DNA of 64,000 nt from Nitrospirota bacterium. GTDB lineage: Bacteria; Nitrospirota; Thermodesulfovibrionia; Thermodesulfovibrionales; JdFR-88. This document shows, piece after piece, positions 2,456 to 16,843 of this stretch. A program made the translations under genes and the position numbers. The notes beneath the pieces were generated by a model that saw only the letters and a list, made by a program, of their open reading frames with translations, did not search any database and was not told the origin of the DNA. The stretch spans positions 1-64,000 of the forward strand of contig JACWAF010000029.1 of NCBI GenBank assembly GCA_014874185.1. Reading direction: 5' to 3'. Each line of letters starts with the position of its first letter. The stretch's first letter is position 1.

Positions 2456-5209
2456 TTAATTCTGCAGCTTCTCTATCCTCACGGCGCAGGCCTTGTATTC
2501 GGGCGTCCCGGTGATCGGGTCCCTGTGCTCCGATGTGAGGACATTCGTGAGGGCGTCCTGGTGATGAAAGGCAAGAAAGACGTTCCCCTCCTGAGAGCGG
2601 GTGGTTACCTTTGTCTTCACCTCGATCTCCCCCCTGCGGGAGAGTACCTTTACCCTCTCCCCGTCCTTTATTTTCAGCCTTTCGGCGTCCGCTGGGCTTA
2701 ATTCCAGAAGCTCTTCCGGGAACAGCTCCATGATCCCCCTGACGCGCCTCGTCATGGAGCCGTTATTGTAATGCTCCCGCCTGCGCCCGGTGATGAGCAC
2801 CAGCGGGAAACTGCTGTCAGCCGCCTCCGCCGGGCCTTTGTGCTCCAGGGCGATAAAGCGCGCGCGGCCCCCCGGCCTCGAGAACATCTCCTGGTACAAT
2901 GTGGCCGTGCCCGGATGGTCTTTGGTGGGGCAGGGCCACTGGATCCCCCCGTCCTCAAGCCGCCTGTAGCTTATGCCCCTGTAAATCGTGGCGAGGCTTG
3001 CTATCTCGTCCATTATTTCAGAGGGGTGGTCATATTTCATCTTATGGCCCATGCGCGAAGACAACTCGCAAAGCACCTGCCATTCGGCCATGCCTGAAAG
3101 CGGCTCTATGGCCTTCCGTATCCTCTGCACACGCCTCTCCCCGTTTGTGAAGGTGCCGTCCTTTTCCGCAAAGCTTGCCCCTGGCAGTATCACGTGGGCG
3201 AAACGGGTGGTCTCAGTGGGGAAGATGTCCTGCACGACCAGAAACTCCAGTGAGCCTAGCGCCTCTCTTACATGGCGAAGGTCGGGGTCCGTCTGCGCGG
3301 GGTCCTCACCCAGGATGAAAAGCCCCTTGAAAGCGCCGTCCTTCGCCTCATCCAGCATCTCGACTGATTTGAGCCCCGGTTTGGCCGGAAGCTTCACGCC
3401 CCATGACTTTTCAAATTTCTCCCGCACGTTTGGGTCGGTTACGGACTGGTAGCCGGTGAATGTGGCGGGCAGCGGCCCCATGTCAGATGCCCCCTGGACG
3501 TTATTTTGCCCCCTCAGGGCCATTATGCCGGTCGCGGGCCTTCCTATCTGGCCGCAGACCAGGGCAAGGTTCGCGATGGCCATGGCGTTTTCGGTGCCGG
3601 TCTGGTGCTCGGTAACCCCGAGGCCGTAGAGTATCATGGCGTTTTGGGCGCCCGCGTAAATGCGCGCGGCCTTGATGAGCTTCTTCGGGGAGACGCCGGT
3701 TATCTTCTCCACCCGGTCAGGCGAATACGCCTCCACCGCCGCCCTCAGTTCTTCGAAACCCTCCGTCCTTTTCCTGATGAAATCCCTGTTGTCCAGGTCC
3801 TCTTTAAGGATGATGTGTATAAGGCCGTTCAGGAGTGCTATATTGGAGCCTGGCCGCAGGTTGAGCCATACCTCCGCATGCCTCACAAGCTCTATCTCGC
3901 GGGGGTCGGCAACGATTATCCGCGCCCCGTTTCTAATGGCCCTGTTCACATGGATGGAGACCACCGGATGCCCTTCGGTGGTGTTCGAGCCGAAGATGAA
4001 CAGCGTATCCGCATCCCCTATCTGGTTGAATGAATTGCTTGCGGCCCCCGCCCCCAGAGAAGTGGCCAGACCGGCCACGGTGGGGGCGTGTCAAACCCTG
4101 GCGCAGTTGTCTACGTTGTTGCTGCCCAGGGCGGCCCTCACCCATTTCGAGATAAGATAATTCTCCTCGTTGGTGCAGCGCGATGATGAAAAGGCGCCGA
4201 CCGCCTCAGGGCCGTATTTTTCCTTTAATTCATTAAAGCGGCTTGCCACGAGGTCCAGCGCCTCATCCCAGGAGGCCTCGCGGAAGCCCTCCCCCTCGCG
4301 GATGAGCGGGGTGGTGAGCCTGTCCGGATGGTGTATGAACTCGTAGCCGAACCGCCCCTTGATGCAGAGGCTGCCCCTGTTCACCGGGGCCTCGTAATCG
4401 GAGGTGACCTTTACCACCCTGCCCCCTTTTACATTTAAATAGAAATTGCAGCCCGTGCCGCAATAGGAGCATGTGGTCCTTATCCTGCGCAGTGAGTGAT
4501 TTCTGCCCTTTCCGATTGACTGCTTCTCGATAAGGGCCCCTGTCGGGCAGGCCGAGACGCACTGCCCGCAAAAAAGGCAGGTTTCGGGCGTAAGCGGCCT
4601 TCCGAAGGCGGTATCGGGCCTGGAGTTGAAACCCCTGCCCGTCATGGCGATTGCGCCTTTCAGCATAAGGTTCTTGCAGATATTGACGCATCTGCCGCAC
4701 AGGATGCACTTGTTCGGGTCGAAGGATATGAAGGGGTTGTCGTCCTTTACCGGAAGGTTCCACCGCTCGCCGTCGTATTTGCCGGGGGTGACTTCATACT
4801 GATATGCCAGCTCCTGAAGAGAGCAGTCCCCGGCCTTCTCGCAGCACATGCAGTCGTCGGGGTGATTGGAGAGGATCAGGGAGAGCATGGTCTTTCTCAG
4901 TTCCGTAAGGTTCGGGCTCTCGGTCGTGATCTCCATCCCGTTCTGGATGGGCGTGGTGCAGGAAGAAAGGGGCCGGTTGATGCCCTTCACCTCAACAAGG
5001 CAAAGCCTGCAACCGCCATAAGCTTCCAGGCGCTCATCGAAGCACAGGGTGGGGATGTAAATCCCCGCTTCCCTGCACGCCTCAAGGACCGTCCTGCCTT
5101 CTTCGCTGATTATTTCCCTGCCGTTTATGACCGCCTTTACCGGTTTTTTCACAATCTGCTCTCCTTCCGCTTGGACCTGACAGGGAAAGGGCCGAATTGC
5201 CCCGGTCAA
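2456..5209 (-). CDS. fdhA: Selenocysteine-containing formate dehydrogenase alpha subunit (FdhA/FdsA-like, with N-terminal 2Fe-2S and 4Fe-4S domains). The ORF track splits it at an in-frame TGA at 4091-4093.
   Basis: The upstream ORF ends in SNNVDNCARV followed by TGA. The downstream ORF continues HAPTVAGL.... This matches the E. coli FdhF selenocysteine motif NNVDCCARV-U-HGPSVAGL. The C-terminal molybdopterin oxidoreductase domains are conserved. The N-terminal start is uncertain. Confidence 0.85.
4062..4078 (-). promoter_or_regulatory. Putative bacterial SECIS hairpin (GUGGCC-GGUCU-GGCCAC) starting 12 nt 3' of the recoded UGA in fdhA
   Basis: Read from the minus-strand mRNA: UGA CAC GCC CCC ACC GUGGCCGGUCUGGCCAC. 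The apical loop GGUCU resembles the E. coli fdhF SECIS loop. Confidence 0.55.
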
Positions 5210-5459
5210 TCCCGCGAAAAATAATATAGCATAGAAAAAACCTGGCCTTCAAATTGGTTATGGCTAAACAGTCTTCCTGATTCGATGAGGAAGTTCAACA
5301 TAACTTATATGTTTTGCAACCTGAGGCTTCAATATATTCCAAGGCGGCAAATGCGCCCCTTTTTTGGCTGGCTTGGCTGGCATTGAAAAGTTCAGTTATT
5401 GCCTAAAGATATACACGATATAGACAGATTATATAAATAAAAGTCCGTGCAACCTACAA

Positions 5460-5475
5460 TGGAATTCTGCTTGCG
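5460..5475 (+). promoter_or_regulatory. Candidate sigma-54 (-24/-12) promoter TGGAATTCTGCTTGCG, about 105 nt upstream of gvpA
   Basis: The GG-N10-GC spacing matches the TGGCAC-N5-TTGC consensus. It lies in an AT-rich 370-bp divergent intergenic region. A sigma-54 activator gene is present at 22233. Confidence 0.45.
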
Positions 5476-5581
5476 TAAAAAATTTCCTCTGATAAAATTT
5501 CAATCATGAGTGGAAGAGTTTCACCGCTCAAGCGGGACTTGAGCCCGTTCCCAATCACGCAAAGGAAGGGAGGTGAACGAA

Positions 5582-5794
5582 ATGGCGGTTGAAAAGGCGA
5601 TAGGGTCCAACAGTCTCGTCGAGGTAATCGACCGGATACTCGACAAGGGCGTCGTGATAGACGCCTGGGTGAGGGTCTCTCTCGTCGGAATCGAACTGCT
5701 CGCCATTGAAGCGCGAGCCGTTGTTGCTTCCGTCGAGACCTATCTGAAATATGCCGAAGCCATCGGCCTTACGGCGACGGCTGCAGCGGCATAG
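5582..5794 (+). CDS. gvpA: Gas vesicle structural protein GvpA
   Basis: [63 protein letters not shown] is the canonical GvpA sequence. A GGAGG-like RBS lies upstream of the ATG at 5582. The ORF track started this gene at the GTG at 5573. Confidence 0.95.
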
Positions 5795-5926
5795 CTTTGA
5801 ACACGGGATGAGCTGATAAACTCTTGCCAGGTTGCCCTCGAGGGGTCCCCGAAAAGCCGGCAGGCTTTTTGGGGCAGGCCTGAGCGTGACCAGCCAAGAT
5901 TTCATTAAACCGGAGCGGAAACAGAG

Positions 5927-6553
5927 ATGGATATCCAGTTGCACGAACTTAGACAACTCGCATTGTTGACGGTATCGTCTCATGAATCCAGGATACTTGC
6001 GGCAAGCAGGATCCTTGACATGATCCACGACGGCCTTGAGAACGTGAGAAGTTTAAGGGACGAGATGAACAACGAAATTAAGGAGGCGCTGGCCGCCACG
6101 GAATCCCTGAGGCGCAAGGACTTCAACTCCATGATAAGAGAGGTGTTTGCCGGACAGGATGAAAGAGAACGGCAGATAAGGATTCTTTTCAAGACCTACA
6201 TGGAAAAGCAAAAAGAGGCGGTCGCGTTGGTGAAAAGGATGTTTTCCGAAAGGGATTCGATAGTGCCTGACGAATTCAAAAAAACCATCCTTCACATCCA
6301 GCTGGCCCATAAGGAAATAGAGGAGGAAATATGCAAACTGCTGAAGGACTTCCAGGGCGAGCAAACGGACATTGTGAAGTCGATTCGCGGTTTGTTCAAT
6401 AAACCTGAGGGCAGGCTGCCGGATTTCAAAGAGATGCTGAAAAGCATACAGGCGAAGCAGAAAGACGGCATCCAAAGGGCAAAAAAAATAACTGAAAAAG
6501 CCAAAAAGGAAAGGTTCGAATCAGACATCCCGTTGGCAGAGGCGTGCTTGTAG
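5927..6553 (+). CDS. Hydrophilic coiled-coil protein, paralogous to the next ORF, in the position of gvpC. Candidate gas-vesicle accessory or scaffold protein.
   Basis: No family recognised. It shares aligned motifs with the 6620 ORF (KDFNSMIREVFAG.. against EDFKSLQKEIAAG..). It lies between gvpA and gvpN. Confidence 0.5.
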   Translation: MDIQLHELRQLALLTVSSHESRILAASRILDMIHDGLENVRSLRDEMNNEIKEALAATESLRRKDFNSMIREVFAGQDERERQIRILFKTYMEKQKEAVALVKRMFSERDSIVPDEFKKTILHIQLAHKEIEEEICKLLKDFQGEQTDIVKSIRGLFNKPEGRLPDFKEMLKSIQAKQKDGIQRAKKITEKAKKERFESDIPLAEACL

Positions 6554-6619
6554 AGAGATGCCGGAGCGGGCTTGCATCGCCCCGGCTTTCCTTAATTAAA
6601 AGGGAAGGAGGCAAATTCC

Positions 6620-7042
6620 ATGCCGATAACAGCCGACATGAAAAGGCTGGCTGAGGACATCGAGGGATCTTTTGATGCCAGGGTGAGCGATATAGCCGGC
6701 TTGAAAGAAAACATCCACAGGATGCTCCCTGAACTCGAAAGGAGCAGGATGGAGGATTTCAAATCCTTGCAAAAGGAGATAGCTGCAGGTGTCAAGGAGA
6801 TGCAATCGGAAGTGGGCTCGATGATCGATTCATTCCACAAATGGAATGTCGATACCGCAAAGTCCCTCAGCAACATGCTGAAGGAGGACAGGGTCGCCAG
6901 GGAAAAAGAAGTGGCCGGTTTTCTCGGCGAGATAGGGGCGGACCTGAGGGATGCATCCGACACCTGGAACCGGCTGACCCTGGACATGTCCCGCAAGAGA
7001 AGCGGGAAGACAGCGCCGGCAAAACAGAAGACAAGCAAGTAG
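6620..7042 (+). CDS. Hydrophilic alpha-helical protein, paralogous to the preceding ORF. Candidate gas-vesicle accessory protein.
   Basis: A strong RBS (GGAAGGAGG) precedes it. It shares motifs with the 5927 ORF and has the composition of a GvpC-like surface protein, but lacks canonical GvpC repeats. Confidence 0.5.
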   Translation: MPITADMKRLAEDIEGSFDARVSDIAGLKENIHRMLPELERSRMEDFKSLQKEIAAGVKEMQSEVGSMIDSFHKWNVDTAKSLSNMLKEDRVAREKEVAGFLGEIGADLRDASDTWNRLTLDMSRKRSGKTAPAKQKTSK

Positions 7043-7059
7043 GGAGGCAGAGCAGATAG

Positions 7060-7977
7060 ATGGACTTCGAAGAGCTAACCACGGTTCTGGAGCCTGCGCC
7101 GTTTAAGGATTTCGTGGAAACACAGTACATCAGGGGCGTCACGGACAGGGCGCTCACCTATATCGAGGCAGGTTTCCCGATCCACTTCAGGGGTGTTTCG
7201 GGGACGGGCAAGACGACGCTGGCGCTGCATGTTGCCGGCAAGATAGGGAGGCCCGTGGTGATGCTCCACGGTAACGAGGAATCAACGGGCTCAGACCTTG
7301 TGGGCGGAGCGTATGGCTACCGGTTTAAAAAGGTGGTCGACCGCTTTGTCGCCAAGGTGTTCAAGATGGAGGAGGATATGGTCAGGCGATGGGTCGACAG
7401 CCGCCTGACCATTGCCTGCAAACACGGGTTCACGCTCCTGTATGACGAATTCACGCGTTCGAGGCCCGAGGCCAATAACGTCCTGCTGTCGGTCCTCGGG
7501 GAAAAGGTCCTCGACTTCCCGGGCGGACAGGGATCTTCGGAACAGTACCTCAAGGTCAACCCCGATTTCACCGCCATATTCACGAGCAACCCCGAAGAAT
7601 ACGCGGGTGTGTACAGGTCCCAGGACGCGCTCAGGGACAGGATGATAACGATGGACCTCGATCACTTCGACCTTGAGACGGAGGTGGCCATAACCCAGGC
7701 AAAAGCGGGCCTGCCAAAGGACGAGTGCGAGAGGATAGCAAGCGTGGTCAGGGGCTTGCGGGAATCTGGCCAGTGCGAATTTGCCCCCACCGTGCGGGCA
7801 TCCGTAATGATAGCGAAGACGCTGAGAGTGCAGAACCGCTCACCCAAAAAATCGGATGCCCTTTTCGTGCAGATATGCAGGGACATACTGGCCTCGGAGA
7901 CCAGCAGGGTCGGCTCGAAGACAAACCAGGAGAGAGTGAAAAAAACGGTGGCCGGCCTGATCGATACCTATTGCTGA
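7060..7977 (+). CDS. gvpN: Gas vesicle protein GvpN (AAA+ ATPase of the CbbQ/NirQ/MoxR family)
   Basis: Walker A (GVSGTGKTTLA) and Walker B (LLYDEFTRSRPEANN) are present. The length and context are typical of GvpN. Confidence 0.9.
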   Translation: MDFEELTTVLEPAPFKDFVETQYIRGVTDRALTYIEAGFPIHFRGVSGTGKTTLALHVAGKIGRPVVMLHGNEESTGSDLVGGAYGYRFKKVVDRFVAKVFKMEEDMVRRWVDSRLTIACKHGFTLLYDEFTRSRPEANNVLLSVLGEKVLDFPGGQGSSEQYLKVNPDFTAIFTSNPEEYAGVYRSQDALRDRMITMDLDHFDLETEVAITQAKAGLPKDECERIASVVRGLRESGQCEFAPTVRASVMIAKTLRVQNRSPKKSDALFVQICRDILASETSRVGSKTNQERVKKTVAGLIDTYC

Positions 7978-7993
7978 TCGGCCTGGAGGGAAA

Positions 7994-8317
7994 ATGATAA
8001 AGAGCGCACGCGCATTGTCCGGAGGAATAAAGGGCCCGCGGGATATAAAGGGGATTTCAAGGGAGGCGAGGCGGCCGAAAACCCAGACCGCTGTCCCTTA
8101 CGGCACGGAATTCTTCATCCTGGGGAAGTGGAAGGAAAGACTTGAGCTGGAGAATGCCTTTCTGGAGAGGCGCATGGCGGCAAACTGCAAAAAGCTCGAC
8201 GCGATAAAGGAGAAGATCGCAAGGTTTGGGGGAGCGATGCGGGCAGTGGAGGGTCCAAAAGATGAGACAGCGGAGACGAGCGGGATGAAATACAAAAAAA
8301 TGACCCTGGGATACTGA
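7994..8317 (+). CDS. Small hypothetical protein within the gvp operon
   Basis: ORF only. It is tightly spaced between gvpN and the Hsp20 gene. No family recognised. Confidence 0.4.
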   Translation: MIKSARALSGGIKGPRDIKGISREARRPKTQTAVPYGTEFFILGKWKERLELENAFLERRMAANCKKLDAIKEKIARFGGAMRAVEGPKDETAETSGMKYKKMTLGY

Positions 8318-8340
8318 TTCCGAACGGGAAGGAGACCTCG

Positions 8341-8868
8341 ATGGCAAGAAAAGAGAAAAGCAAAGAAGGCATAGATATAGACCTGGGGGTTGTCAAGCTG
8401 AGCGCGGGAGGACTGTTCAAGGGGCTTGAAAAGCTCGTGGACCTCGCGGCCAAGCTCCAGGAAGCGGGCGGACAGATAAGCAAAGAGCAGGAGATAGACC
8501 TCAGCCAACTCAAGAAGGGGATGAAGGCGGTATACGGGGTTTCAATCAGGACAGCCGTGGGCGGCGAGCCGGTGGTGGAGACCTTCGGCAATATCAAAAA
8601 GACGGAGAAAGGGCCGCTTGCGGAGGAGGAAAGGGAGCCCCTGACGGATGTTTTTGACGAAAAGGAGGAAATCCTGGTTCTGGCCGAAATCCCCGGCGTG
8701 AATGAAGAGGGGATAAAGGTCGGGATCGAAGGCGGTCAGATAGTCATATCGGCGGCGGGGACAAACCGGAAATACAGGAAAGAGATAGAAATCCCTTCAG
8801 GCGCAAAGCCGGAAACGATGACCACCAGCTATAGGAACGGAATCCTGGAGATCAGGATTAAAAAGTGA
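8341..8868 (+). CDS. Hsp20/alpha-crystallin domain protein (GvpH-like small heat-shock protein)
   Basis: The C-terminal half is ACD-like (EILVLAEIPGVNEEGIKVGIEGGQIVISAAG...ETMTTSYRNGILEIRI). The N-terminus is charged and lysine-rich. Confidence 0.7.
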   Translation: MARKEKSKEGIDIDLGVVKLSAGGLFKGLEKLVDLAAKLQEAGGQISKEQEIDLSQLKKGMKAVYGVSIRTAVGGEPVVETFGNIKKTEKGPLAEEEREPLTDVFDEKEEILVLAEIPGVNEEGIKVGIEGGQIVISAAGTNRKYRKEIEIPSGAKPETMTTSYRNGILEIRIKK

Positions 8869-9824
8869 ACGCCGTTTGCGGACTCCTCGACCCGCCGCTA
8901 AAGTTGATCCTGTTCGGCGGCAAGGGGGGTGTGGGGAAGACAACTCTTGCTTCAAGCGCCGGGGTTTATCTGGCCGAAAGGGGGAAAAGGACGCTTCTTG
9001 TCTCAACCGACCCGGCTCATTCCCTTTCGGACAGCCTGGGGATCGAGATAGGCAGTGAGACAAGAAATACGGAAATCGAGGGCTTGCATGCCCTGGAGAT
9101 AAATGCCGAAAAAGAGTTTGCGTCCTTTAAGGAACAATACGACAAGGAGCTGAGGAGCATCTTTGACACGGGCAGCTATCTGGATAAGGACGATGTGGAT
9201 TCGATACTTGCATTGCAGATGCCCGGCATTGACGAGGTAATGGGCCTCAAACAGATTATCGAGCTTGTAAGGGAAGGAAAATACGATAAATACGTACTGG
9301 ACACCGCCCCGACCGGGCATGCGCTAAGGCTTCTGCATCTTCCCGAACTCCTGGACCAGTGGATAAAGGTCGTCTCAAAGATGAGATGGAAATACAGATA
9401 CATGGTGGAAAGATTTTCGGGAGGATACAGGCCGGACGCGGTTGATGAGCTTCTTGTCACCATGAAAAAATCGGTCAAGCATATAGGAGACATTCTAAAG
9501 GACCAGAAGGCATGCGAGTTTATCGCGGTCACCATACCTGAAGATATGGCGATCAGGGAGACAGGGAGACTTATGGATTCTCTGAAGAGATATGGGATAA
9601 GGGTGCGGCAATTGATAATCAATAATGTCATCTGTCCTTCAAGCACATGCCCTTTCTGCATGGAAAGAAGAAAGGGACAGGAAAAATACATCAAGTCCGC
9701 AAGAGAGCAGTTCGGCAATCTGAATATCGTTGAGATACCGCTTCAGCAACACGAGGTAAAGGGGATCAGGGATCTTCAGAGGATGACGGGCCTTGCATTC
9801 GCGGATACGTGCCCTGCAACCTGA
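8865..9824 (+). CDS. ArsA/GET3-family anion-transporting ATPase homolog (single domain) embedded in the gvp cluster
   Basis: P-loop (LFGGKGGVGKTTLAS), STDPAHSL and the DTAPTGHALRLL signature are present. There is a C-terminal CPSSTCPFC cysteine motif. The start overlaps the Hsp20 stop. Confidence 0.85.
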   Translation: MNAVCGLLDPPLKLILFGGKGGVGKTTLASSAGVYLAERGKRTLLVSTDPAHSLSDSLGIEIGSETRNTEIEGLHALEINAEKEFASFKEQYDKELRSIFDTGSYLDKDDVDSILALQMPGIDEVMGLKQIIELVREGKYDKYVLDTAPTGHALRLLHLPELLDQWIKVVSKMRWKYRYMVERFSGGYRPDAVDELLVTMKKSVKHIGDILKDQKACEFIAVTIPEDMAIRETGRLMDSLKRYGIRVRQLIINNVICPSSTCPFCMERRKGQEKYIKSAREQFGNLNIVEIPLQQHEVKGIRDLQRMTGLAFADTCPAT

Positions 9825-9836
9825 AAAAGAGGCGGC

Positions 9837-11978
9837 TTGAACATGAACACTCAAGGTGAAGGCATATCGTTGAAGGTGAAGGAGGCGCTGCCGAAGGACG
9901 TGGGCAGGGCCATAGCCAGAATGGACCCTGAGGACATGAAGCGGCTCGGTGCTGAAGTAGGCGACATCATTGAGATCGCCGGGAAAAGGAGAGCGGCGGC
10001 AAAGGTGATGCCCTGCTATCCCGAGGAAAGGAATAAAGGGATTGTGCAGATTGACGGCATAATGCGGGAGAACTCCCAGACGGGGCTGGATGAGAAGGTG
10101 AACATAAGGAGGGCGGCCGCGGTTGCGGCGCGCAAGCTGACCCTTTCGCCCATGACCCGGATCCATCCTCTCCACAAGCTAAAGGACATGAAGTACCTGG
10201 GCTCTCTTCTGGAGGGGATGCCGCTCATCAATGGGGACAGGCTCAGGGTCAGCTTTTTCGGCGCCAGGGCGTACGATTTCAGGGCCACAGGCGTGCTTCC
10301 GCAGGGAATCGTTTTTGTAACCCCGTCGACCACGATAAACCTTGAGGCGGAAGTCCCCGAGAAGCCAAAGCACCTGAAGATATCATACGAGGACATAGGG
10401 GGGCTTCAATCCCAGATCAGAAAGATAAGAGAGATGATAGAGCTGCCTCTGAAGTATCCGCAAATATTTGAAAGGCTGGGGATTGAGCCGCCCAAGGGGG
10501 TCTTTCTTTACGGACCGCCTGGCACCGGAAAGACTCTTATTGCAAGGGCTGTTGCAAACGAGACCGAGGCCTATTTCACCCATATAAGCGGCCCCGAGAT
10601 AATGGGCAAATTCTACGGGGAAAGCGAGGCCCGCCTGAGGAGCATATTTGAAGAGGCCGAAAAAAAAGCCCCCTCCATAATCTTCATCGACGAGATCGAC
10701 GCCATAGCGCCAAAGAGGGAGGAGATGGGCGGGGAGAAACAGGTCGAAAGGAGGGTCGTGGCACAACTCCTTGCCCTTATGGACGGCCTGGAATCGAGGG
10801 GCGACGTGATAGTCATAGCCGCGACTAACCTTCCCAACCTGATAGACCCCGCGCTCAGGCGCCCGGGCAGGTTTGACAGGGAGATCCCAATCGATATCCC
10901 CGACCGGAAAGGGCGGCTTCAGATCCTCAACATCCATACCCGGGGGATGCCTCTGTCAGAGGACGTCAATACGGATAAGATTGCCGAGATCACGCATGGT
11001 TTTGTTGGCGCCGACCTGGAAGCCCTGGCGAGAGAGGCGGCCATGTCGGCCCTCAGAAAAATACTTCCGGAGATCGATTTCCAGATGGAGGAGATCCCCT
11101 ATGAGACCCTGATGCAGCTTCAGGTGACGATGGCCGATTTTCTGGAGGCGATGAAAGAGGTGGAGCCGTCCGCCATAAGAGAAGTCTTCGTCGAGGTGCC
11201 CGATGTAAGGTGGTCTGACGTGGGGGGCCTGGATGATATAAAGCAGGAGTTGCAGGAAGCGATAGAATGGCCCCTGAAATATCCCGAACTGTTCGGAAGG
11301 GCCGGCACGAGGCCTCCGAAGGGGATACTCCTTCACGGGGCCCCAGGGACCGGGAAGACCCTCATAGCCAAGGCCCTTGCCAACGAGAGCGGCGTAAATT
11401 TCATATCGGTCAAAGGCCCGAGCCTGATCTCAAAATTCGTCGGAGAGAGCGAAAAGGCCCTCAGGGACATATTCAAGAAGGCCAAGCAGGCCTCTCCTAC
11501 GATCCTGTTCTTTGACGAGATAGACAGCCTCGTCCCGAAACGGGACGGAGGAGGAGAAGCCCACGTGACGGAGAGAGTGGTGAGCCAGTTTCTGACCGAA
11601 ATGGACGGCATCGAGGAGCTGAGGGGCGTGGTGGTCCTGGCGGCCACGAACAGGCCGGACTTGATTGACCCGGCCCTGTTGAGAGGCGGCAGGTTTGATG
11701 TCCAGATGATTCTTCCTCTTCCCGATGAACGGACGCGGCTTAAGATCTTTGAAATCCATACAAGGGGCAAGCCCCTGGCTGGCGATGTCGATCTGCCCGA
11801 ACTGGCAAGACGGACTGAAGGCAGGGCGGGTTCAGATATTGAATTGATCTGCCGCAAGGCTTCCCTTCTTTCCATAAGGGAATACATCGGCCAGGAAATG
11901 AAGGCCGGGTTAGAGATTTCAAAGCGGCATTTTGAGGAAGCCCTGACGCTTCTCGAAAAGCGGGTTGCGGGGTATTAG
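9837..11978 (+). CDS. CDC48/VCP-like AAA+ ATPase with two AAA domains (N-domain, D1 and D2)
   Basis: The N-terminal double-psi-barrel-like region is present. There are two Walker A motifs (GPPGTGKT and GAPGTGKT), two DEID Walker B motifs and SRH motifs. Confidence 0.9.
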
Positions 11979-11981
11979 CGC

Positions 11982-13040
11982 ATGGAAGGTAAATATGCAT
12001 TCGGCGTCATTGAAGCACCTGAGGCAAAACTTCCCCTGCCGGAAGCGGTCTACACTGTCCCATACCGGGATATTTCGGCCGTAGTAATGGATTCAGCCAT
12101 GGTCGATTTTGCAGCCATGACCAAGGAGGCCGGGGCAAGATATCTTCTCAGGCATCAGCAGGTGCTGGAGAAGGCAATGGTTTCGCACCCAGTGATACCC
12201 CTGAAGCTCGGCACTTATGTTTCCAGTCATGCAGAGGTGATCGACGTCTTGTCATTTGGATACCGTGATTTCAAGGAGACCTTCCGCGAAATAGAAGGCA
12301 AAGTGGAAATCAATGTCGCCGCGACATGGTCTGACAAGGATTCCATTATCAGGCAGACGGCGGAGGAGAGTGAAGAGGTACGGGAGTATAAAAAGAAGCT
12401 CTTGTCGAAACCCGGGGGCGTAAACATGGAAGACCAGATGAACGCCGGACGCCTGGTCAGGAAAGCCATGGAAAAGAGGAACAGGAAAACGGCTTCCGGA
12501 ATAACAAGCGCCCTTTCGGAGATTGCGCTGGCACAGAGGACGCATGATCTCATGGACGACGGCATGATCCTGAATGCGGCCTTTCTGGTTGAACACAGGA
12601 AAATAAAAAGATTTGATTACGTCCTGAATAGATTGGACGAGGCCTATCATGGGCGAATAAATTTCAGGTGCATAGGCCCTTTACCTACATACAGCTTCTA
12701 CACCGCCGAGATAAAAAAGGTTTGTTCCGGCGAACTGGACAAGGCTAGGAAAATGCTCGGGCTCCGGGATTACCCGGTATGCAAGGACGAAATAGAAAAG
12801 GCATACCGGCAGCGCGCCCGCATGTGTCATCCCGATGTGATCGGGCATTGCATTGAAACGGGGGAGAAACGGGCCAGGAAAAAAGGACAGCCCTGTGCCA
12901 GTCCGGAAGTTGAAAGCACGGAAGAGTTCACCGAGATAAACAGGGCTTACAAGCTGCTTATGGACTGCAGCGCATCCGAAGCCTGTCGCAGAGAGGATGG
13001 AAGCGTTCTCATCGTCAGAGTAATGAGGATAAGGGGATAA
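11982..13040 (+). CDS. GvpL/GvpF-family gas vesicle protein fused to a C-terminal J-domain (DnaJ-like, HPD motif)
   Basis: The N-terminus is GvpF/L-like (YAFGVIEA...YRDISAVV...GPLPTYSFY). The C-terminus reads EIEKAYRQRARMCHPDV...EEFTEINRAYKLL, which are J-domain helices II and III with an HPD motif. Confidence 0.75.
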   Translation: MEGKYAFGVIEAPEAKLPLPEAVYTVPYRDISAVVMDSAMVDFAAMTKEAGARYLLRHQQVLEKAMVSHPVIPLKLGTYVSSHAEVIDVLSFGYRDFKETFREIEGKVEINVAATWSDKDSIIRQTAEESEEVREYKKKLLSKPGGVNMEDQMNAGRLVRKAMEKRNRKTASGITSALSEIALAQRTHDLMDDGMILNAAFLVEHRKIKRFDYVLNRLDEAYHGRINFRCIGPLPTYSFYTAEIKKVCSGELDKARKMLGLRDYPVCKDEIEKAYRQRARMCHPDVIGHCIETGEKRARKKGQPCASPEVESTEEFTEINRAYKLLMDCSASEACRREDGSVLIVRVMRIRG

Positions 13041-13041
13041 G

Positions 13042-13818
13042 GTGGAAAAATCGGGCAAATACATTTACTGCGTGATAAGGACAGAGCAGGAAAGGAATTT
13101 CGGCAATATCGGAATGGGCGGGGGCATGGGCGGGGGAGACAACGAAGTGACAACGGTCGGCCTTGGCGATCTGAGCATGGTTGTGAGCAATTCGCCTGTG
13201 AGCAAGTATCCGGTAAGCAGGGAAAATCTTCTCGTCCACCAGAAGGTGGTCGAGGAGGTGATGAAAGAGTTTACCGTCCTGCCGGTTCGGTTTTGCACGA
13301 TCGCTCCCGCCGCCGGCAAGATCCGGAACCTCATCGAAAGAAGAGGGAAGGAATTCAAGACCCTGCTCCGTCAGATGGAATTCAAAATAGAATTGGGAGT
13401 AAAGGCGATCTGGAGAGATATGGACAGGGTATTCAGGGAGATCGTGGAAGAGGACAAGCAGATTGCTGCTCTCAGGCGGAAAATCTCCGGAGACGGCAGA
13501 ACCAGCGTCCAGACAAAAATGGAGCTGGGCAGGATGGTCGAGCGTGCTCTGGCGGAAAAAAAGGAAACGGAATCCGGTGCAATCATGTCTACCTTGAAGA
13601 GAGCGGCATTCGACTGGAAGCCCGGCCGGACCTCCGATGACAAGATGATCATGAACGCCTCTTTTCTGGTTGACAAGGCCAGGGAGAAGGAGTTCGACAA
13701 CATCGTGGAGGATTTCAGCGAGAACTACAAGGAAAGAATAAAGTTCATGTATGCCGGCCCCCTGCCCCCATATAATTTTGTGAGCGTGGTAATCCATCCC
13801 GAGGAATGGGAACTATAG
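13042..13818 (+). CDS. GvpF/GvpL-family gas vesicle protein (second copy)
   Basis: YIYCVIRT...GDLSMVVSNSPV...AGPLPPYNFVSV. The architecture is typical of GvpF/L. Confidence 0.8.
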   Translation: MEKSGKYIYCVIRTEQERNFGNIGMGGGMGGGDNEVTTVGLGDLSMVVSNSPVSKYPVSRENLLVHQKVVEEVMKEFTVLPVRFCTIAPAAGKIRNLIERRGKEFKTLLRQMEFKIELGVKAIWRDMDRVFREIVEEDKQIAALRRKISGDGRTSVQTKMELGRMVERALAEKKETESGAIMSTLKRAAFDWKPGRTSDDKMIMNASFLVDKAREKEFDNIVEDFSENYKERIKFMYAGPLPPYNFVSVVIHPEEWEL

Positions 13819-13828
13819 GGGGAAACGG

Positions 13829-14059
13829 ATGCTCCTGATAGACGACCTTCTGCTGTTGCCGCTTAGGGGTGTTATCGGGATATTTAAAAAGATAAACGAA
13901 ATGGCGGAAACGGAATTATCGGACGCGGACCGCATACGGGAAAAGTTGATGGAAGCCAGACTCAAATTCGAGCTGGATGAGATGAGCGAGGAAGAATATG
14001 AGGAGCTGGAGACAGAGCTTCTGGCCCGTCTGGATTCCCTGAGGGAAAGCCAGTCATAA
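13829..14059 (+). CDS. gvpG: Gas vesicle protein GvpG
   Basis: MLLIDDLLLLPLRGVIGIF... This N-terminal motif and the acidic coiled-coil C-terminus are typical of GvpG. Confidence 0.75.
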   Translation: MLLIDDLLLLPLRGVIGIFKKINEMAETELSDADRIREKLMEARLKFELDEMSEEEYEELETELLARLDSLRESQS

Positions 14060-14069
14060 AAGAGGAGGC

Positions 14070-14348
14070 ATGGACATGTCAACGATAATCGAAGAGGCGG
14101 ACAAGATAGTCATCGACTTCCTGAAAAGAATACTTCACTCTGACGAGGGCAAGATAAAGATCATCAAAACCGCTAAAACCGACGTGGGATGGAGCGCGGA
14201 AGCGGAGGTCTTCGAAGAGAGTGGTTTCATAAAAAGCCTGGGCCTCCCAACCAGGGTGCAGGACAGAAATGTATATAAGGTAATGCTCGATAACAACCTC
14301 GATGTCATGTCCTATGAACAGGTGGACAGGGAGGACGGTAGAGAGTGA
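14070..14348 (+). CDS. GvpO-like gas vesicle protein
   Basis: The C-terminal pattern GWSAEAEVFEE...VQDRNVYKVMLDNNLDVMSYEQVDRED resembles the GvpO core GW..V.VEV....Y.I.LD..G.V..Y...R. Confidence 0.55.
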   Translation: MDMSTIIEEADKIVIDFLKRILHSDEGKIKIIKTAKTDVGWSAEAEVFEESGFIKSLGLPTRVQDRNVYKVMLDNNLDVMSYEQVDREDGRE

Positions 14349-15172
14349 AGATATCCGGGGAATCAACGCCTGAGCATCTGGTATATCTTTTCTGCCTGGC
14401 TGATAAAATCCCGGAAACGGGCACTGAAACAGGAAAAGCCGGCAAGGATATAACTTACTTTTTAAATAACGGCCTCTATGCGGTTACGGGCATTGTGGCA
14501 AGTGATGATTTCTGCGGGGAGAACCTGAAAAGAAACCTGAACGATTTCAAGTGGGTTGAAGAGAAGGTCAGGTTTCATGAGCGGGTCGTGGAAAAAATGA
14601 TGGCATCCTCCACCGTGATACCGTTCAAGTTCGGCTCGGTCTTCAAAACGGAAGAAAGCCTGAAGAAGATGCTCGATGAATACATCGATGCATTCATGGA
14701 GATTTTTAAAAAGCTGGAAGGGAAACGGGAATGGGGAATAAAGATCTTCTGTGACCGCAAGGCATTTGCCCGATCAATTGAAAAGGGCGGTCATTGTGAC
14801 AGGCCGGAAAAAGAGATTGATATTCTCTCCACGGGGCGGGCTTTTTTAAACAGGAAAAGACAGGACCAGCTTATGTCAGAGCTCGTGGACGTGAAAATAA
14901 ACGAGGCCAGACTCGAAATTTATGAGGTGCTGATGGGGCACAGCACTGAAGTCCGCATCAGTGGTCTTTTGCCTGCGGAAGTAACCAGCCGGAAAGAGGA
15001 CATGGTGTTCAATGCCGCTTTCCTGGTTGATAACGGCATGGCGGGCGCTTTCATCGACGAAGTGGAACTTTTTAAGGATAAATACCGCGGGTTTGAAATG
15101 GAATGCACGGGTCCATGGCCACCTTATAATTTCTGCGCCATTAAAGAGCATGAATCAGCAGATAGCAAATAG
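14345..15172 (+). CDS. GvpF/GvpL-family gas vesicle protein (third copy)
   Basis: LVYLFCLAD...LYAVTG...ends GPWPPYNFCAI, parallel to the other GvpF/L copies. Confidence 0.8.
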   Translation: MKISGESTPEHLVYLFCLADKIPETGTETGKAGKDITYFLNNGLYAVTGIVASDDFCGENLKRNLNDFKWVEEKVRFHERVVEKMMASSTVIPFKFGSVFKTEESLKKMLDEYIDAFMEIFKKLEGKREWGIKIFCDRKAFARSIEKGGHCDRPEKEIDILSTGRAFLNRKRQDQLMSELVDVKINEARLEIYEVLMGHSTEVRISGLLPAEVTSRKEDMVFNAAFLVDNGMAGAFIDEVELFKDKYRGFEMECTGPWPPYNFCAIKEHESADSK

Positions 15173-15737
15173 GAATGTCTGTCTGTCTGAAGCGATAGAC
15201 GCCGTTCTGAACAAGGGCGTTGTCGTCAGCGGAGACATAACTCTATCCGTTGCTGATGTCGATCTGGTCTTCGTGGGCCTGAGGGCGCTTCTGGCTTCGG
15301 TCGACGTGGCAAACAGGATTAGAGGGGGGCCGGGCCCGCTTGGCGCGCCGCCGTCATCGGGAAAAACCGTTCCGGGCGGAAGGCCTGATCCCGTAGAGGC
15401 CTGTTCTTCTTCATGCTCCGAAGAAAGCCGGCTCGCGGTGCTTGAAGGGGGCGTGGAAAAAGCCGCAGTCCCTCTTCCACGCATTGAGATGGAAGAATCG
15501 AAGCCCGAGCGGGGGCTTGCGAAACTGGTCCTCACCGTCGTGGACCTTGTAAGAAAGCTGATGGAAAAGCAGGCCATCCGGAGGATGGACGGCGGGAGCC
15601 TGACGGAAGAGGAGATAGAACGGCTTGGAAACACCTTCGCGAAACTGGAAGAGAGGATGGAAGACCTGAAAAGGGTCTTCGGCCTCGAAGGGGAGGAACT
15701 CGAATTGGACCTTGGTCCTTTGGGAAAACTCACATGA
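15150..15737 (+). CDS. GvpJ (GvpA-family) domain fused to a GvpK-like domain
   Basis: The N-terminus reads LSEAIDAVLNKGVVVSGDITLSVADVDLVFVGLRALLASVD (GvpJ/A fold). A Pro/Gly/Ser linker follows. The C-terminus reads GLAKLVLTVVDLVRKLMEKQAIRRMDGGSLTEEEIERLG (GvpK signature). The proposed ATG at 15150 overlaps the previous gene by 23 nt. Confidence 0.7.
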   Translation: MNQQIANRNVCLSEAIDAVLNKGVVVSGDITLSVADVDLVFVGLRALLASVDVANRIRGGPGPLGAPPSSGKTVPGGRPDPVEACSSSCSEESRLAVLEGGVEKAAVPLPRIEMEESKPERGLAKLVLTVVDLVRKLMEKQAIRRMDGGSLTEEEIERLGNTFAKLEERMEDLKRVFGLEGEELELDLGPLGKLT

Positions 15738-15783
15738 AAACCGGGGGAGAGCGAACATAAATGAAGACCAAAGGGAATAACTG

Positions 15784-16077
15784 ATGGCCGAACAGCTGGT
15801 TCATTCCATACAGGCCACAAACCTTGCCGACATATTGGAACGGGTCCTGGACAAAGGCATAGTCATTGCCGGAGATATCCGGATCAATCTCGTCGAGGTC
15901 GAGCTGCTGAACATAAAACTGAGGCTTCTCATAGCCTCTGTGGATAAGGCAATGGAAATGGGAATAAACTGGTGGCAGACGGACCCCTATCTTTCCTCTA
16001 AGGCGCAGAAGCTGGAAGACGAAAACCGGATGCTCAAGGAGCAGTTGGAACGGCTTGAAAAGAATCCGCTTGCCTGA
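15784..16077 (+). CDS. GvpA/J-family minor gas vesicle protein (GvpS/GvpM-like)
   Basis: NLADILERVLDKGIVIAGDIRINLVEVELLNIKLRLLIASVDKA. Confidence 0.8.
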   Translation: MAEQLVHSIQATNLADILERVLDKGIVIAGDIRINLVEVELLNIKLRLLIASVDKAMEMGINWWQTDPYLSSKAQKLEDENRMLKEQLERLEKNPLA

Positions 16078-16082
16078 GGCCC

Positions 16083-16772
16083 ATGCGCACCCTCCTGTAT
16101 GTGCCTATTATCCATATGAGCGCGGACCTTGGTTCGCTTGCCAAGAATTTTACAAACCGGGGCATAAAGGATCTGGGGGAGGATGTCTGGGAAGAACACA
16201 GGAAAACCGTTTCGATGTTCTGGGAGTCGATAACGGCTTTTTTTGAGGCTATGCCCGTAGCGGGATTCAAGATATACCAGGACGGAATGATCGCAAATGG
16301 CGAGATAGCTGAAAAGATAATAGAGGCAGGCGTAAGAAGCGGCAGCAAGAATTACGAGATCATAAGGAGACTCATGGGGAAAGGGGCTATTCTTATAAAA
16401 ACGGAAGATCTGGCCCTGGTAAAAGAAGAAAGAGACTGGCTGCTTCGGATAACCCAGGCCAGAACGCTCCCTGAAAAATTGAAGGCTTATCTTGGATTCA
16501 GGGGGGCAAAAAACCATCTTCTGAAAAGAAGGGACAGCTATATAGCCCAAACGATAAACAGGACCCTCGGGCAGGAGGAGACAGGGATTTTATTCATAGG
16601 GGCTTACCATGAAATAATTCCCCGGCTTGATCCGGACATCGCGGTCAAAGAAATAAAAGAAGTTCGCAAAGTGAGGGAATATCAAAAAAGGCTGCCATAC
16701 CAGGGCAGAAAAAAAGATGAGCTATTTGAAGAATTGTCCCATTATCTAATCAGACCTGTTAACAAGAAGTAA
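16083..16772 (+). CDS. Hypothetical protein, last gene of the gvp operon (6 nt after the preceding stop)
   Basis: ORF with operon-like spacing. No recognisable family. Confidence 0.45.
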   Translation: MRTLLYVPIIHMSADLGSLAKNFTNRGIKDLGEDVWEEHRKTVSMFWESITAFFEAMPVAGFKIYQDGMIANGEIAEKIIEAGVRSGSKNYEIIRRLMGKGAILIKTEDLALVKEERDWLLRITQARTLPEKLKAYLGFRGAKNHLLKRRDSYIAQTINRTLGQEETGILFIGAYHEIIPRLDPDIAVKEIKEVRKVREYQKRLPYQGRKKDELFEELSHYLIRPVNKK

Positions 16773-16843
16773 TTTACAAAAGGCCGCCTTTAATTGAGTC
16801 AGGCGGAATGCAATGGCCTATAAAAGCGAAAAGGGGCAGGCAA

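Follow-up and report, generated by a model that had tools for sequence, protein, structure and literature searches.

Chaperone-type genes within gas-vesicle (gvp) clusters have a published precedent. Castillo and Saier (2010, PMC2963123) described an ArsA homologue together with Hsp20, encoded in the company of gvpN/F/L/G/J/K/M/O and away from any ars genes, in Polaribacter irgensii, Pelodictyon luteolum, Geobacter uraniireducens, Anabaena/Nostoc and an acidobacterium, and proposed that the ArsA-family ATPase energizes a vesicle-biogenesis step. In Nodularia, an ArsA gene listed under arsenate genes, nsp15480, carries the locus tag directly after the gvp tags nsp15380–nsp15470 (PMC3610870), a numbering from which we infer adjacency to the gvp cluster. 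Among haloarchaeal accessory proteins, GvpF is known to bind GvpA monomers, GvpL to bind GvpJ/M and GvpH to keep GvpM from aggregating (PMC9501494); in E. coli, GvpA2 aggregation leads to proteotoxic stress that is relieved by pre-expressed assembly factors (PMC12848028). A link between Get3-type ATPases and small heat-shock proteins is likewise documented in Get3d, a natural fusion of Get3 and an alpha-crystallin domain (PMC10248533).

Here, we analyzed a gvp operon in a 64-kb stretch of DNA, the whole of which we call the window. The complete operon spans 5582–16772 in the order gvpA, two helical proteins, gvpN, X107, Hsp20, Get3-like ArsA, CDC48/VAT, GvpF/L::J, gvpF/L, G, O, F/L, J/K, S and X229. 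Its four chaperone-type genes (Hsp20 through GvpF/L::J) lie inside it at 8341–13040, co-directional and tightly packed, with ORFs at exactly the positions originally predicted, and between 6620 and 16772 the gaps from one gene to the next run from −23 to +46 nt. Beyond the operon, a mobile islet adjoins the gvp cluster, with 48-bp repeats that bracket 16865–21980. Pfam profiles, with NCBIfam in agreement, bore out the four domain assignments of the original prediction (Hsp20, ArsA/GET3, two-ring CDC48 and GvpF/L plus J), and Pfam likewise bore out its operon inventory, with gvpA, gvpN, three GvpF/L, gvpG, a weakly matching gvpO, GvpJ-GvpK and a GvpS/J-like gene. The features are as follows.

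5460–5474 (+): TGGAATTCTGCTTGC, sigma-54-like −24/−12 element, candidate operon promoter ~110 nt 5' of gvpA
5582–5794 (+): gvpA, major shell protein, 70 aa counted from ATG 5582 (ORF listed from GTG 5573); Pfam Gas_vesicle E 6e-17
5927–6553 (+): conserved helical protein, 208 aa, no Pfam or NCBIfam match; paralogue of the 6620–7042 gene
6620–7042 (+): conserved helical protein, 140 aa, no Pfam or NCBIfam match; paralogue of the 5927–6553 gene
7060–7977 (+): gvpN, MoxR/AAA_5-type ATPase; Pfam AAA_5 E 1.8e-16
7994–8317 (+): X107, conserved small protein; no family match in Pfam or NCBIfam
8341–8868 (+): Hsp20/alpha-crystallin small heat-shock protein, GvpH-like, 175 aa; Pfam HSP20
8865–9824 (+): single-domain Get3/TRC40-type ArsA-family ATPase, 319 aa; Pfam ArsA_ATPase 276 bits, E 4e-82
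9648–9659 (+): Get3-type CxxC zinc/dimer motif, Cys262-Pro-Phe-Cys265 of the ArsA homologue, aligned to Get3 3zq6
9843–11978 (+): CDC48/VAT-type double-ring AAA+ ATPase, 711 aa from ATG (713 aa from the alternative start TTG 9837); Pfam CDC48_N, CDC48_2, two AAA and two AAA_lid_3
11982–13040 (+): GvpF/L domain with C-terminal J-domain (GvpF/L::J), 352 aa; Pfam GvpL_GvpF E 3.7e-54 and DnaJ
12726–12971 (+): J-domain, residues 249–330 of the fusion, comprising helix I, helix II, HPD, a disordered insert and helix III
13042–13818 (+): second GvpF/L paralogue; Pfam GvpL_GvpF E 3.8e-62
13829–14059 (+): gvpG; Pfam GvpG E 2.7e-19
14070–14348 (+): GvpO-like small protein; Pfam GvpO E 6e-4, below GA
14345–15172 (+): third GvpF/L paralogue; Pfam GvpL_GvpF E 1.9e-50
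15150–15737 (+): GvpJ-GvpK fusion, one ORF with Pfam Gas_vesicle E 1e-13 and GvpK E 6e-33; start ATG 15150 picked to match the 197-aa orthologue in related locus L003
15784–16077 (+): GvpS/J/M-like small Gas_vesicle-family protein; Pfam Gas_vesicle E 1e-16
16083–16772 (+): X229, conserved terminal protein; no family match in Pfam or NCBIfam

The order Hsp20–ArsA–CDC48–GvpF/L::J recurs in ~90 related loci, all from MAGs or SAGs of uncultured organisms, and the 80 loci of GTDB species representatives are labelled as belonging to at least 15 bacterial phyla. CDC48 is present in 62 of 65 informative loci and directly upstream of the fusion gene in 56 of them; Hsp20 occurs in 57/59 and ArsA in 50/59, so that ArsA is dispensable for some clusters. 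Two of these loci, L003 and L005, preserve full synteny at 37–50% fusion-protein identity amid unrelated flanking genes, and two loci retrieved by CDC48 similarity alone proved to have matching gvp context. Across 41 loci, the identity matrices of CDC48, ArsA, Hsp20 and the fusion correlate with that of GvpN (r 0.64–0.79, Mantel p 0.001), as would also be expected from shared species phylogeny. Because dozens of independent loci in many phyla repeat the gene order, the arrangement lies far beyond chance, and the four genes are integral, co-inherited parts of a distinct, widespread class of gas-vesicle operon carried by many uncultured anaerobes.

The operon is thus a real, conserved variant of a known system, and a largely undescribed one. 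It resembles the Castillo and Saier clusters in having an ArsA-family ATPase and Hsp20 among gvp genes, and this pairing, published in 2010 for organisms including Anabaena/Nostoc (PMC2963123), removes that part of the novelty originally claimed. We found no published account of gvp clusters with CDC48, a J-domain fusion or Hsp70; PMC2963123 itself is silent on CDC48 ('cdc48', 0 occurrences), the J-domain fusion, Hsp70 and DnaJ zinc-finger proteins, all of which occur in the present cluster or its relatives. The ATPases differ as well, those of PMC2963123 being two-domain proteins of ~600–640 aa, in contrast to the 319-aa, single-domain, Get3-like protein with CxxC in the window; a two-domain form is encoded in a sister variant of the present cluster.

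The Hsp20 protein scores 30.9 bits against Pfam HSP20 (GA 20.8), 19.9 against Pfam GvpH (just under GA 22) and 138 bits against the archaeal Hsp20 model NF041800 (NCBIfam, cutoff 140). Its match to haloarchaeal GvpH is therefore weak and below the family threshold, whereas it is a bona fide alpha-crystallin protein near the archaeal Hsp20 equivalog. The end of its reading frame and the start of ArsA share 4 nt, both in the window and in L003. This pairing parallels the alpha-crystallin partnership of Get3d, although Get3d is a fusion without CxxC (PMC10248533) and the window encodes Hsp20 as a separate overlapping gene beside an ArsA homologue with CxxC.

The ArsA homologue reaches 272 against TIGR00345 (GET3_arsA_TRC40, cutoff 135) and only 126 against the ArsA equivalog (cutoff 650), with Chlamydomonas ARSA1 (5zme) and archaeal Get3 (3zq6, 3ug6) as its best PDB matches. 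Homology to archaeal and eukaryotic Get3 and chloroplast ARSA1 is full-length (E 1e-38 to 3e-75) and includes the P-loop, switch regions and CxxC zinc motif, for which M. thermautotrophicus Get3 (3zq6) served as the reference. Among 47 gvp-linked orthologues, C262, F264 and C265 are at least 95% conserved, as are the P-loop, switch II and CxFC. Unlike the Get3/TRC40 proteins, this one resides in a bacterial host, without Get1/2 receptor context. A C-terminal tail anchor, the mark of canonical Get3 clients, was found in none of the cluster proteins, so that a Get3-like holdase role on GvpA would be an extrapolation. The most hydrophobic 19-mer among the cluster proteins is in GvpA (KD 1.89), and the GvpG N-terminus is also hydrophobic (KD 1.85).

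CDC48 shares the N domain, D1 and D2 architecture of archaeal VAT/CDC48 and eukaryotic p97 (TIGR01243 954, cutoff 803; Thermoplasma VAT 5g4f, E 1e-227) and, like VAT, has an aromatic D1 pore loop, KFYG, whose Tyr is at least 95% and Phe at least 80% conserved among gvp-linked copies. Walker A and B of both D1 and D2 are at least 95% conserved, and mean pairwise identity across phyla is 74%. It differs from VAT and p97 in being bacterial, in lying inside an organelle-biogenesis operon and in the C-terminal HbYX proteasome-docking tail, of which the gvp-linked alignment contains no conserved example, making docking on a 20S proteasome improbable. We know of no gvp linkage for other bacterial CDC48 relatives (actinobacterial Cpa, Mpa, ARC).

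In the GvpF/L::J fusion, the N-terminal 245 residues match the fold of haloarchaeal GvpF (Foldseek, 6l5d and 4qsg; for 6l5d, E 6e-15 and TMt 0.81; AF2 model of the fusion, pLDDT 87). No described GvpF or GvpL bears a J-domain; ~90 database sequence clusters combine the two in one protein. The window's J-domain is only just above threshold (Pfam DnaJ 33.1 bits, GA 27.8), and DnaJ proteins are the sole matches of this region in a PDB sequence search. AF2 predicts helices at residues 249–258, 268–282 and 308–330, with pLDDT <50 at 289–306. The design, a client- or site-specific domain joined to a J-domain with HPD, is that of specialized J-domain proteins of the HscB, auxilin and DjlA types, from which the fusion differs in its C-terminal J-domain, in having the gas-vesicle assembly factor GvpF/L as client domain, and in the window copy's loop insertion after HPD.

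That this J-domain would recruit Hsp70, as originally predicted, gains support from an HPD motif that is intact in the window (12828–12836), invariant in the family alignment and present in 77/77 members, and from full-length HSP70 genes at the 3' end of sister gvp clusters; stand-alone DnaJ-type CXXCXGXG zinc-finger proteins also occur in 34/59 loci. The prediction is limited by the window copy's atypical disordered insert of about 13–20 aa, absent from 61/77 relatives, and no Hsp70 gene was found within the 64-kb window. As judged from the alignments, the conserved ArsA, CDC48 and HPD motifs indicate purifying selection on functional motifs.

On balance, we read the four genes as a client-specific chaperone/unfoldase module for the hydrophobic, aggregation-prone GvpA/J/M/S-family proteins during vesicle building. 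The GvpF/L domain of the fusion would bind a GvpA-family client, as haloarchaeal GvpF and GvpL do, and its J-domain would, through HPD, trigger ATP hydrolysis by Hsp70 (host DnaK here, a cluster-encoded partner in the sister variant), so that the client is captured or released at the assembly site. The GvpH-like sHsp may hold off-pathway subunits in a re-solubilizable form, and a zinc-bridged Get3-like dimer could draw on its ATP cycle to protect hydrophobic segments and pass them on, as holdase or targeting factor. Lastly, a VAT-like CDC48 hexamer, whose pore loops are aromatic and which lacks a proteasome-docking tail, would thread and unfold mis-assembled or aggregated subunits, allowing them to re-enter assembly. 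The conservation of the operon suggests that cells build buoyancy organelles with dedicated chaperones, although well-studied gvp clusters make vesicles without these four functions (PMC9501494), which counts against this reading.

The same proteins might instead act in disassembly and recycling, with CDC48, aided by Hsp70/J, the sHsp and the Get3-like holdase, extracting GvpA from collapsed or unwanted vesicles, which would enable cells to become less buoyant or to recover shell protein. Once collapsed, vesicles are extremely stable and resist digestion by other means; CDC48/VAT segregases draw subunits out of stable assemblies, and the gvp-linked CDC48 combines aromatic D1 pore loops with intact ATPase sites in both rings; the absent HbYX tail fits recycling over degradation, and GvpN already serves the cluster as an assembly ATPase. 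We nonetheless consider recycling unlikely, as GvpF/L, the fusion partner of the J-domain, is an essential assembly factor and binds GvpA monomers (PMC9501494), and the genes occupy the interior of a biosynthetic operon whose gaps are minimal, implying that they are co-expressed with the assembly genes.

We give little credence to a SIMIBI/ParA-like positioning or membrane-targeting role for the ArsA homologue (for example, to keep vesicles or nucleation complexes spaced or anchored), with CDC48, sHsp and J-domain as generic protection against GvpA proteotoxicity. Weaker matches to ParA, MinD and CbiA point in this direction, ArsA can be uncoupled from the module (the other three genes remain in the 9/59 loci that lack it), and Castillo and Saier proposed only that the ATPase 'energizes a biogenic step' (PMC2963123). 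The ParA/MinD scores, however, are below 40 bits (cutoffs 180–213) against 272 for Get3/TRC40 (cutoff 135), the Get3-specific CxxC dimer motif is kept at ≥95%, and translational coupling to the sHsp echoes the Get3d fusion (PMC10248533). Hitch-hiking, in which general stress chaperone genes arrived in the operon accidentally and play no part in gas-vesicle biology, has a negligible probability in our estimate. A mobile islet does adjoin the cluster and the best-studied gvp clusters lack these genes, vesicles forming in B. megaterium and Serratia, to our knowledge, without any of the four functions; but the islet's repeats lie outside the operon, dozens of loci in at least 15 phyla share the gene order between unrelated flanks, ~90 sequence clusters carry the J-domain in covalent fusion with a Gvp protein, and the identity matrices correlate with that of GvpN. 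The local insertion that the original prediction had weighed is decisively contradicted by module synteny across phyla in the neighborhood survey, which effectively refutes hitch-hiking.

Other genes of the operon are conserved as well. The two helical proteins are related to each other (BLASTP E 6e-4) and have homologues at the equivalent position in ~50 related loci; the position of gvpN is common to the related loci, X107, which invariably follows gvpN, has homologues in 55 loci, and the GvpO-like gene keeps its position in ~60. X229, whose single-sequence AF2 model has a pLDDT of 35, has homologues as the last gene of the cluster in ~50 loci. Upstream of gvpA, the TGGAATTCTGCTTGC element matches the pattern TGGCAC-N5-TTGC with 2 mismatches, a single-site candidate that hints weakly at a sigma-54-like operon promoter, and a sigma-54 response regulator adjoins gvpA in L005.

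The gas-vesicle (gvp) genes of the window form a compact operon on the + strand at ~5.5-16.8 kb, as delineated from open reading frames and Pfam matches, with the Hsp20, Get3-like ArsA, CDC48 and GvpF/L::J genes lying inside it as a four-gene module.

Genes of the gvp operon in the window (coordinates, strand, product, basis of assignment)
5582-5794, +, gvpA (Pfam)
5927-6553 and 6620-7042, +, two paralogous helical proteins (no family match; mutual BLASTP E 6e-4)
7060-7977, +, gvpN (AAA_5; Pfam)
7994-8317, +, X107, a small unknown protein
8341-13040, +, four-gene module (Pfam)
13042-13818, +, GvpF/L (Pfam)
13829-14059, +, GvpG (Pfam)
14070-14348, +, GvpO, weak match (Pfam)
14345-15172, +, GvpF/L (Pfam)
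15150-15737, +, GvpJ-GvpK fusion (Pfam)
15784-16077, +, GvpS/J-like (Pfam)
16083-16772, +, X229, an unknown 229-aa protein

Because neighbouring genes between 6620 and 16772 are spaced by only -23 to +46 nt, the operon is very probably a single transcription unit. Internal transcription signals cannot be claimed, since scanning 5200-17100 for promoter and terminator consensus matches gave counts no higher than in shuffled sequence. A sigma-54-like -24/-12 element (TGGAATTCTGCTTGC) lies at 5460-5474, ~110 nt upstream of gvpA; in one related gvp locus from another genome (L005), genes for a sigma-54 response regulator and a histidine kinase lie a short way upstream of gvpA, and two others (L089 and L090) carry response regulators. 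Across related loci, X107 holds its fixed position after gvpN in 55 and X229 stands at the operon end in 50, each without a Pfam or NCBIfam family; a single-sequence AF2 run on X229 gave an unusable model (pLDDT 35). The paralogous helical proteins (5927-7042) likewise belong to no Pfam or NCBIfam family and keep a fixed place after gvpA in this cluster type, where they could be GvpC-like shell stiffeners.

The original prediction, read from the sequence alone, had named the module's genes and their domains, and comparisons with Pfam, NCBIfam, the PDB and AF2/Foldseek confirmed these identities in every particular. The Hsp20 protein (8341-8868) belongs to the Hsp20/alpha-crystallin family (PF00011, 30.9 bits vs. 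a Pfam gathering threshold (GA) of 20.8, residues 105-175) and scores just under equivalog level against the NCBIfam archaeal Hsp20 model NF041800 (138 vs. a cutoff of 140). It falls outside the GvpH family (PF05455, 19.9 bits vs. GA 22), and its orthologue in the related locus L003 gives a weak GvpH match; we consider its place in the operon GvpH-like, as its role probably is too. In both the window and L003, the Hsp20 and Get3-like ArsA genes overlap by 4 nt, a pairing with a precedent by analogy in cyanobacteria and plants, whose Get3d joins Get3 and an alpha-crystallin domain in one natural fusion protein and lacks the CxxC motif (PMC10248533).

The ArsA homologue (8865-9824) is a single-domain protein of 319 aa from the Get3/TRC40/ArsA family (TIGR00345, 271.9 vs. 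a cutoff of 135; Pfam ArsA_ATPase, 276 bits), and scores well short of the equivalog model for the arsenical-pump ArsA, a two-domain protein of ~580 aa (TIGR04291, 126 bits vs. a cutoff of 650); Pfam searches found no arsR, arsB, arsC, arsD or acr3 gene within the gvp operon. Among solved structures, its best matches are to Chlamydomonas ARSA1 and to archaeal Get3 (3zq6 and 3ug6), with fungal Get3 and E. coli ArsA ranking behind them. In Get3, a CxxC motif coordinates Zn2+ at the homodimer interface, and the window protein carries a Get3-type CxxC (C262-P-F-C265) that aligns with the one in 3zq6, placing it among Get3-type proteins. Conservation is at least 95% across 47 single-domain orthologues for the P-loop (deviant Walker A, GKGGVGKTT), the switch II motif DTAPTGH and the Cys-x-Phe-Cys itself, the CxxC having been described as a Get3 signature that is missing from Get3d (PMC10248533). 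A hydrophobic-segment scan found no C-terminal tail anchor in any cluster protein, and no Get1/2-type receptor candidate was identified. The most hydrophobic segments of the cluster (GvpA 24-42, GvpG 1-19 and GvpJK 30-48) are, as read from their sequences, candidate hydrophobic clients, and because none of them is a tail anchor, the analogy with Get3 would be one of mechanism rather than of pathway membership.

The third gene (9843-11978) encodes a CDC48/VAT/p97 protein with CDC48_N, CDC48_2, two AAA domains and two lids (Pfam), scoring 953.8 against TIGR01243 (cutoff 802.65) and matching Thermoplasma VAT (5g4f) at E 1e-227 across residues 7-703. The features of an unfoldase are present: among 62 orthologues, the Walker A and B motifs of both rings are at least 95% conserved, as is the Tyr of the D1 pore loop KFYG, with its Phe conserved at a level of at least 80% and the D2 loop KFVG at a lower level of ~60%. 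The aromatic D1 loop is shared with VAT, whereas in p97 the D1 loop is not aromatic. Mean pairwise identity across phyla is 74% for CDC48 vs. 48% for the GvpF/L::J fusion. The C-termini of the 62 gvp-linked CDC48 proteins are unrelated to one another and the HbYX proteasome-docking motif is absent (the window protein ends in ...RVAGY, its Tyr being the final and not the penultimate residue), and for these reasons the enzyme is probably not a proteasome cap and would act as a free-standing unfoldase or segregase.

The fourth gene (11982-13040) fuses a GvpF/L domain (PF06386, 184.8 bits vs. GA 23.6, E 3.7e-54) to a C-terminal J-domain (PF00226, DnaJ, 33.1 bits vs. GA 27.8), and is referred to here as FL::J. 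Its AF2 model, built from 15 homologues with a pLDDT of 87, has the GvpF fold (Foldseek vs. Anabaena GvpF 6l5d, E 6e-15, TMt 0.81; vs. 4qsg, E 3e-14), and the C-terminal region alone returned weak PDB matches to DnaJ proteins only. In the predicted J-domain, helices 249-258 and 268-282 precede the HPD (residues 283-285), which is followed by disorder over 289-306 and then by a long helix, 308-330. H283-P284-D285 is invariant in the homologue alignment, and an HPD is found in 77/77 fusion relatives. The distance from the HPD to the A-Y motif is the canonical 20 residues in 61 of these 77; the window shares with L003 and L008 a longer spacing of 33-40 residues, a departure from canonical J-domain geometry. 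The stretch from the HPD to helix III contains an insert of 13-20 aa (12846-12899, residues 289-306; pLDDT <50), common only to the closest relatives, the subclade formed by the window, L003 and L008.

No Hsp70 gene is present within the 64-kb window, so a host DnaK would have to serve FL::J. In a sister variant of the cluster, represented by loci L006, L018, L032, L042, L057 and L091, gvpN is present twice, a two-domain ArsA (~655 aa) follows gvpG, CDC48-FL::J is usually found, extra Hsp20 and zinc-finger genes occur, and the 3' end of the cluster encodes an Hsp70 of full length (Pfam HSP70 E 1e-178 to 1e-194), as in L006, L042 and L091. By carrying Hsp70, the obligatory partner of a J-domain, within the cluster itself, these loci give the strongest indication so far that the J-domain may indeed serve as one. 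A second two-domain ArsA was also seen in L091, and three in L092, from an acidobacterial genome.

Beyond the window, ~90 sequence clusters in a collection of 5.8 billion proteins hold both PF06386 and PF00226, and FL::J relatives at 50%, 39%, 37% and 32% identity all lie within gvp clusters with unrelated flanks. Scanning one genome per GTDB species, we obtained 311 matching stretches, of which the best 80 loci were examined; without exception, these came from MAGs or SAGs, with labels that include Nitrospirota, Planctomycetota (Pirellulales, Phycisphaerales, Sedimentisphaerales), Omnitrophota, Elusimicrobiota, Syntrophorhabdales/Syntrophus, Ignavibacteriales/Melioribacteraceae, Nitrospinota, Latescibacter, Edwardsbacteria, Sumerlaeota, Desantisbacteria, Saganbacteria, Kiritimatiellaeota and Cloacimonetes. 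Among the matches listed, the closest relatives are labelled Nitrospirae or Nitrospiraceae, so the window probably derives from a Nitrospirota MAG, and the window's gene order is reproduced gene for gene in L003 and L005. For gene counts, all open reading frames of the loci were translated and searched with jackhmmer profiles seeded from the window proteins, and counting was restricted to non-redundant loci with sufficient upstream sequence.

Occurrence of module genes in related gvp loci
CDC48 directly upstream of FL::J (gap <400 bp): 56/65 loci
CDC48 in locus: 62/65 loci
Hsp20: 57/59 loci
ArsA-family gene, any: 50/59 loci
ArsA, single-domain: 44/59 loci
ArsA, two-domain (~655 aa, after gvpG): 5/59 loci
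DnaJ-type CXXCXGXG zinc-finger protein: 34/59 loci

Two extra loci fetched by CDC48 similarity alone (71-72% identity) showed the same Hsp20-ArsA-CDC48-FL::J context. In the 41 loci holding all the genes, the matrix of pairwise identities of each of CDC48, ArsA, Hsp20 and FL::J is correlated with the GvpN matrix (Spearman 0.64-0.79, Mantel p 0.001), a pattern that fits inheritance or transfer of the module as one unit and that shared species phylogeny would also give. With the same gene order recurring between unrelated flanks in many phyla, a local insertion of the module, which would have undone the original prediction, is rejected; the window is one ordinary member of a widespread cluster variant.

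The zinc-finger proteins counted in these loci are small and stand-alone, and are often encoded between gvpN/X107 and Hsp20 (e.g., L090 4987-5478, L006 8192-8725 and L007 1407-1745); the L090 protein clears the Pfam threshold, and none is encoded in the window. A search for isolate carriers through the two-domain ArsA confirmed none, the best 120 matches being environmental, with Ca. Euphemobacter frigidus and acidobacterial AH-259 genomes among those named. Hsp20, the Get3-like ATPase and CDC48 give their best scores against archaeal or eukaryote-type models or structures, in host genomes labelled bacterial. An archaeal host or origin was considered and set aside, the sole archaeal label (P0074, 'Methanomicrobium sp.') belonging to a 3.4-kb binned contig and being too weak to carry it.

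How the very hydrophobic GvpA stays soluble and enters the growing vesicle wall is a long-standing open question, and in model systems GvpF, GvpH and others are only loosely credited with 'chaperone' roles. Among the haloarchaeal accessory proteins, none but GvpF binds monomeric GvpA, GvpL binds GvpJ and GvpM, and GvpH prevents aggregation of GvpM (PMC9501494); in E. coli, GvpA2 aggregates via a hydrophobic beta-strand and causes proteotoxic stress unless assembly factors are pre-expressed (PMC12848028). Taken with these precedents, we lean towards reading the module as a client-specific chaperone network for GvpA-family proteins. FL::J would be a specialised J-domain protein whose GvpF/L domain holds a GvpA-family subunit while its HPD loop fires Hsp70; the small heat-shock protein would be a holdase; the Get3-like protein, as a zinc-bridged dimer, would shield hydrophobic segments under ATP regulation; and the CDC48 hexamer would thread and release mis-assembled subunits. 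The original prediction is partly supported, its gene identities and the module's link to gvp genes being borne out; delivery and quality control of GvpA, which it put forward, would be the functional side, one that we infer throughout.

Competing explanations, which we consider less likely, would have CDC48 serving vesicle disassembly or recycling, or the ArsA homologue having a ParA-like positioning role; chance hitch-hiking of all four genes is effectively excluded, contradicted as it is by the synteny data. Within the chaperone-network reading, we hold only tentatively, and with some doubt, the further possibility that the four proteins (five with Hsp70) might form one physically interacting, proteasome-independent machine required for vesicle formation in many uncultured anaerobic bacteria, a machine of archaeal/eukaryote-type parts in which the Get3-like ATPase would act on non-membrane GvpA-family clients and FL::J would couple client to Hsp70.

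The claim that this arrangement was undescribed holds in part. Clusters of gvp genes that contain ArsA homologues together with Hsp20 have been reported from Polaribacter, Pelodictyon, Geobacter uraniireducens, Anabaena/Nostoc and an acidobacterium, with the ArsA homologues described as two-domain and a role in biogenesis proposed for them (Castillo and Saier 2010, PMC2963123). In Nodularia, the ArsA gene nsp15480 directly follows the gvp genes nsp15380-nsp15470 by locus tags, and is listed under arsenate genes (PMC3610870); a 2022 specialist gas-vesicle review mentions neither ArsA nor Hsp20 (PMC9501494). Our literature search, which omits most subscription journals, found no paper on CDC48/VAT, a GvpF/L-J fusion, a DnaJ zinc-finger protein or Hsp70 in gvp clusters; pairing gas vesicle with Get3 returned none, with J-domain nothing relevant, and with cdc48 or DnaJ only unrelated haloarchaeal or stress papers. 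Within the reach of this search, the cluster type is undescribed as a variant, the association of ArsA and Hsp20 with gvp genes being already published.

The cluster type names machines that evolution repeatedly kept with gvp genes, namely J-domain/Hsp70, small heat-shock protein, Get3 and CDC48, and because these are mechanistically well understood, the question of GvpA solubility becomes directly testable. If true, the chaperone-network reading would widen the set of clients for Get3 and for bacterial CDC48. The more tentative single-machine possibility, if true, would add a new Get3 client class and make this the first CDC48-Get3-Hsp70 network in bacteria that is specific to an organelle. 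Aggregation and proteotoxicity of GvpA restrict how well gas vesicles for ultrasound reporters can be expressed heterologously (PMC12848028), and a portable cassette of co-evolved chaperones is an obvious candidate to try in gas-vesicle engineering.

Downstream of the operon, we observed a 48-bp exact direct repeat (16865-16912 and 21933-21980) in which the last 43 nt (3' end) of tRNA-Lys(CTT) are joined to 5 further nt, with the tRNA-Lys gene itself at 21938-22011 on the minus strand. The two copies bracket a ~5-kb islet of low GC (0.46-0.48) that encodes an HTH_17 protein, a Phd/PIN toxin-antitoxin pair, a MazE-like gene, a 468-aa unknown protein, a DUF234/ATPase_2 protein and an XRE-type HTH, with no integrase seen within 16865-21980; the islet resembles an integrative element, decayed or satellite, that inserted immediately downstream of the gvp operon. 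The gvp cluster itself is ruled out as a tRNA-Lys island, since the repeats enclose only 16865-21980, downstream of the operon. Upstream of the operon, a formate-dehydrogenase-like molybdopterin oxidoreductase (2456-5209, minus strand) is split into two open reading frames by a single in-frame TGA, which sits in the motif NCARV-TGA-HAPTV and which we take to be the classic selenocysteine position.
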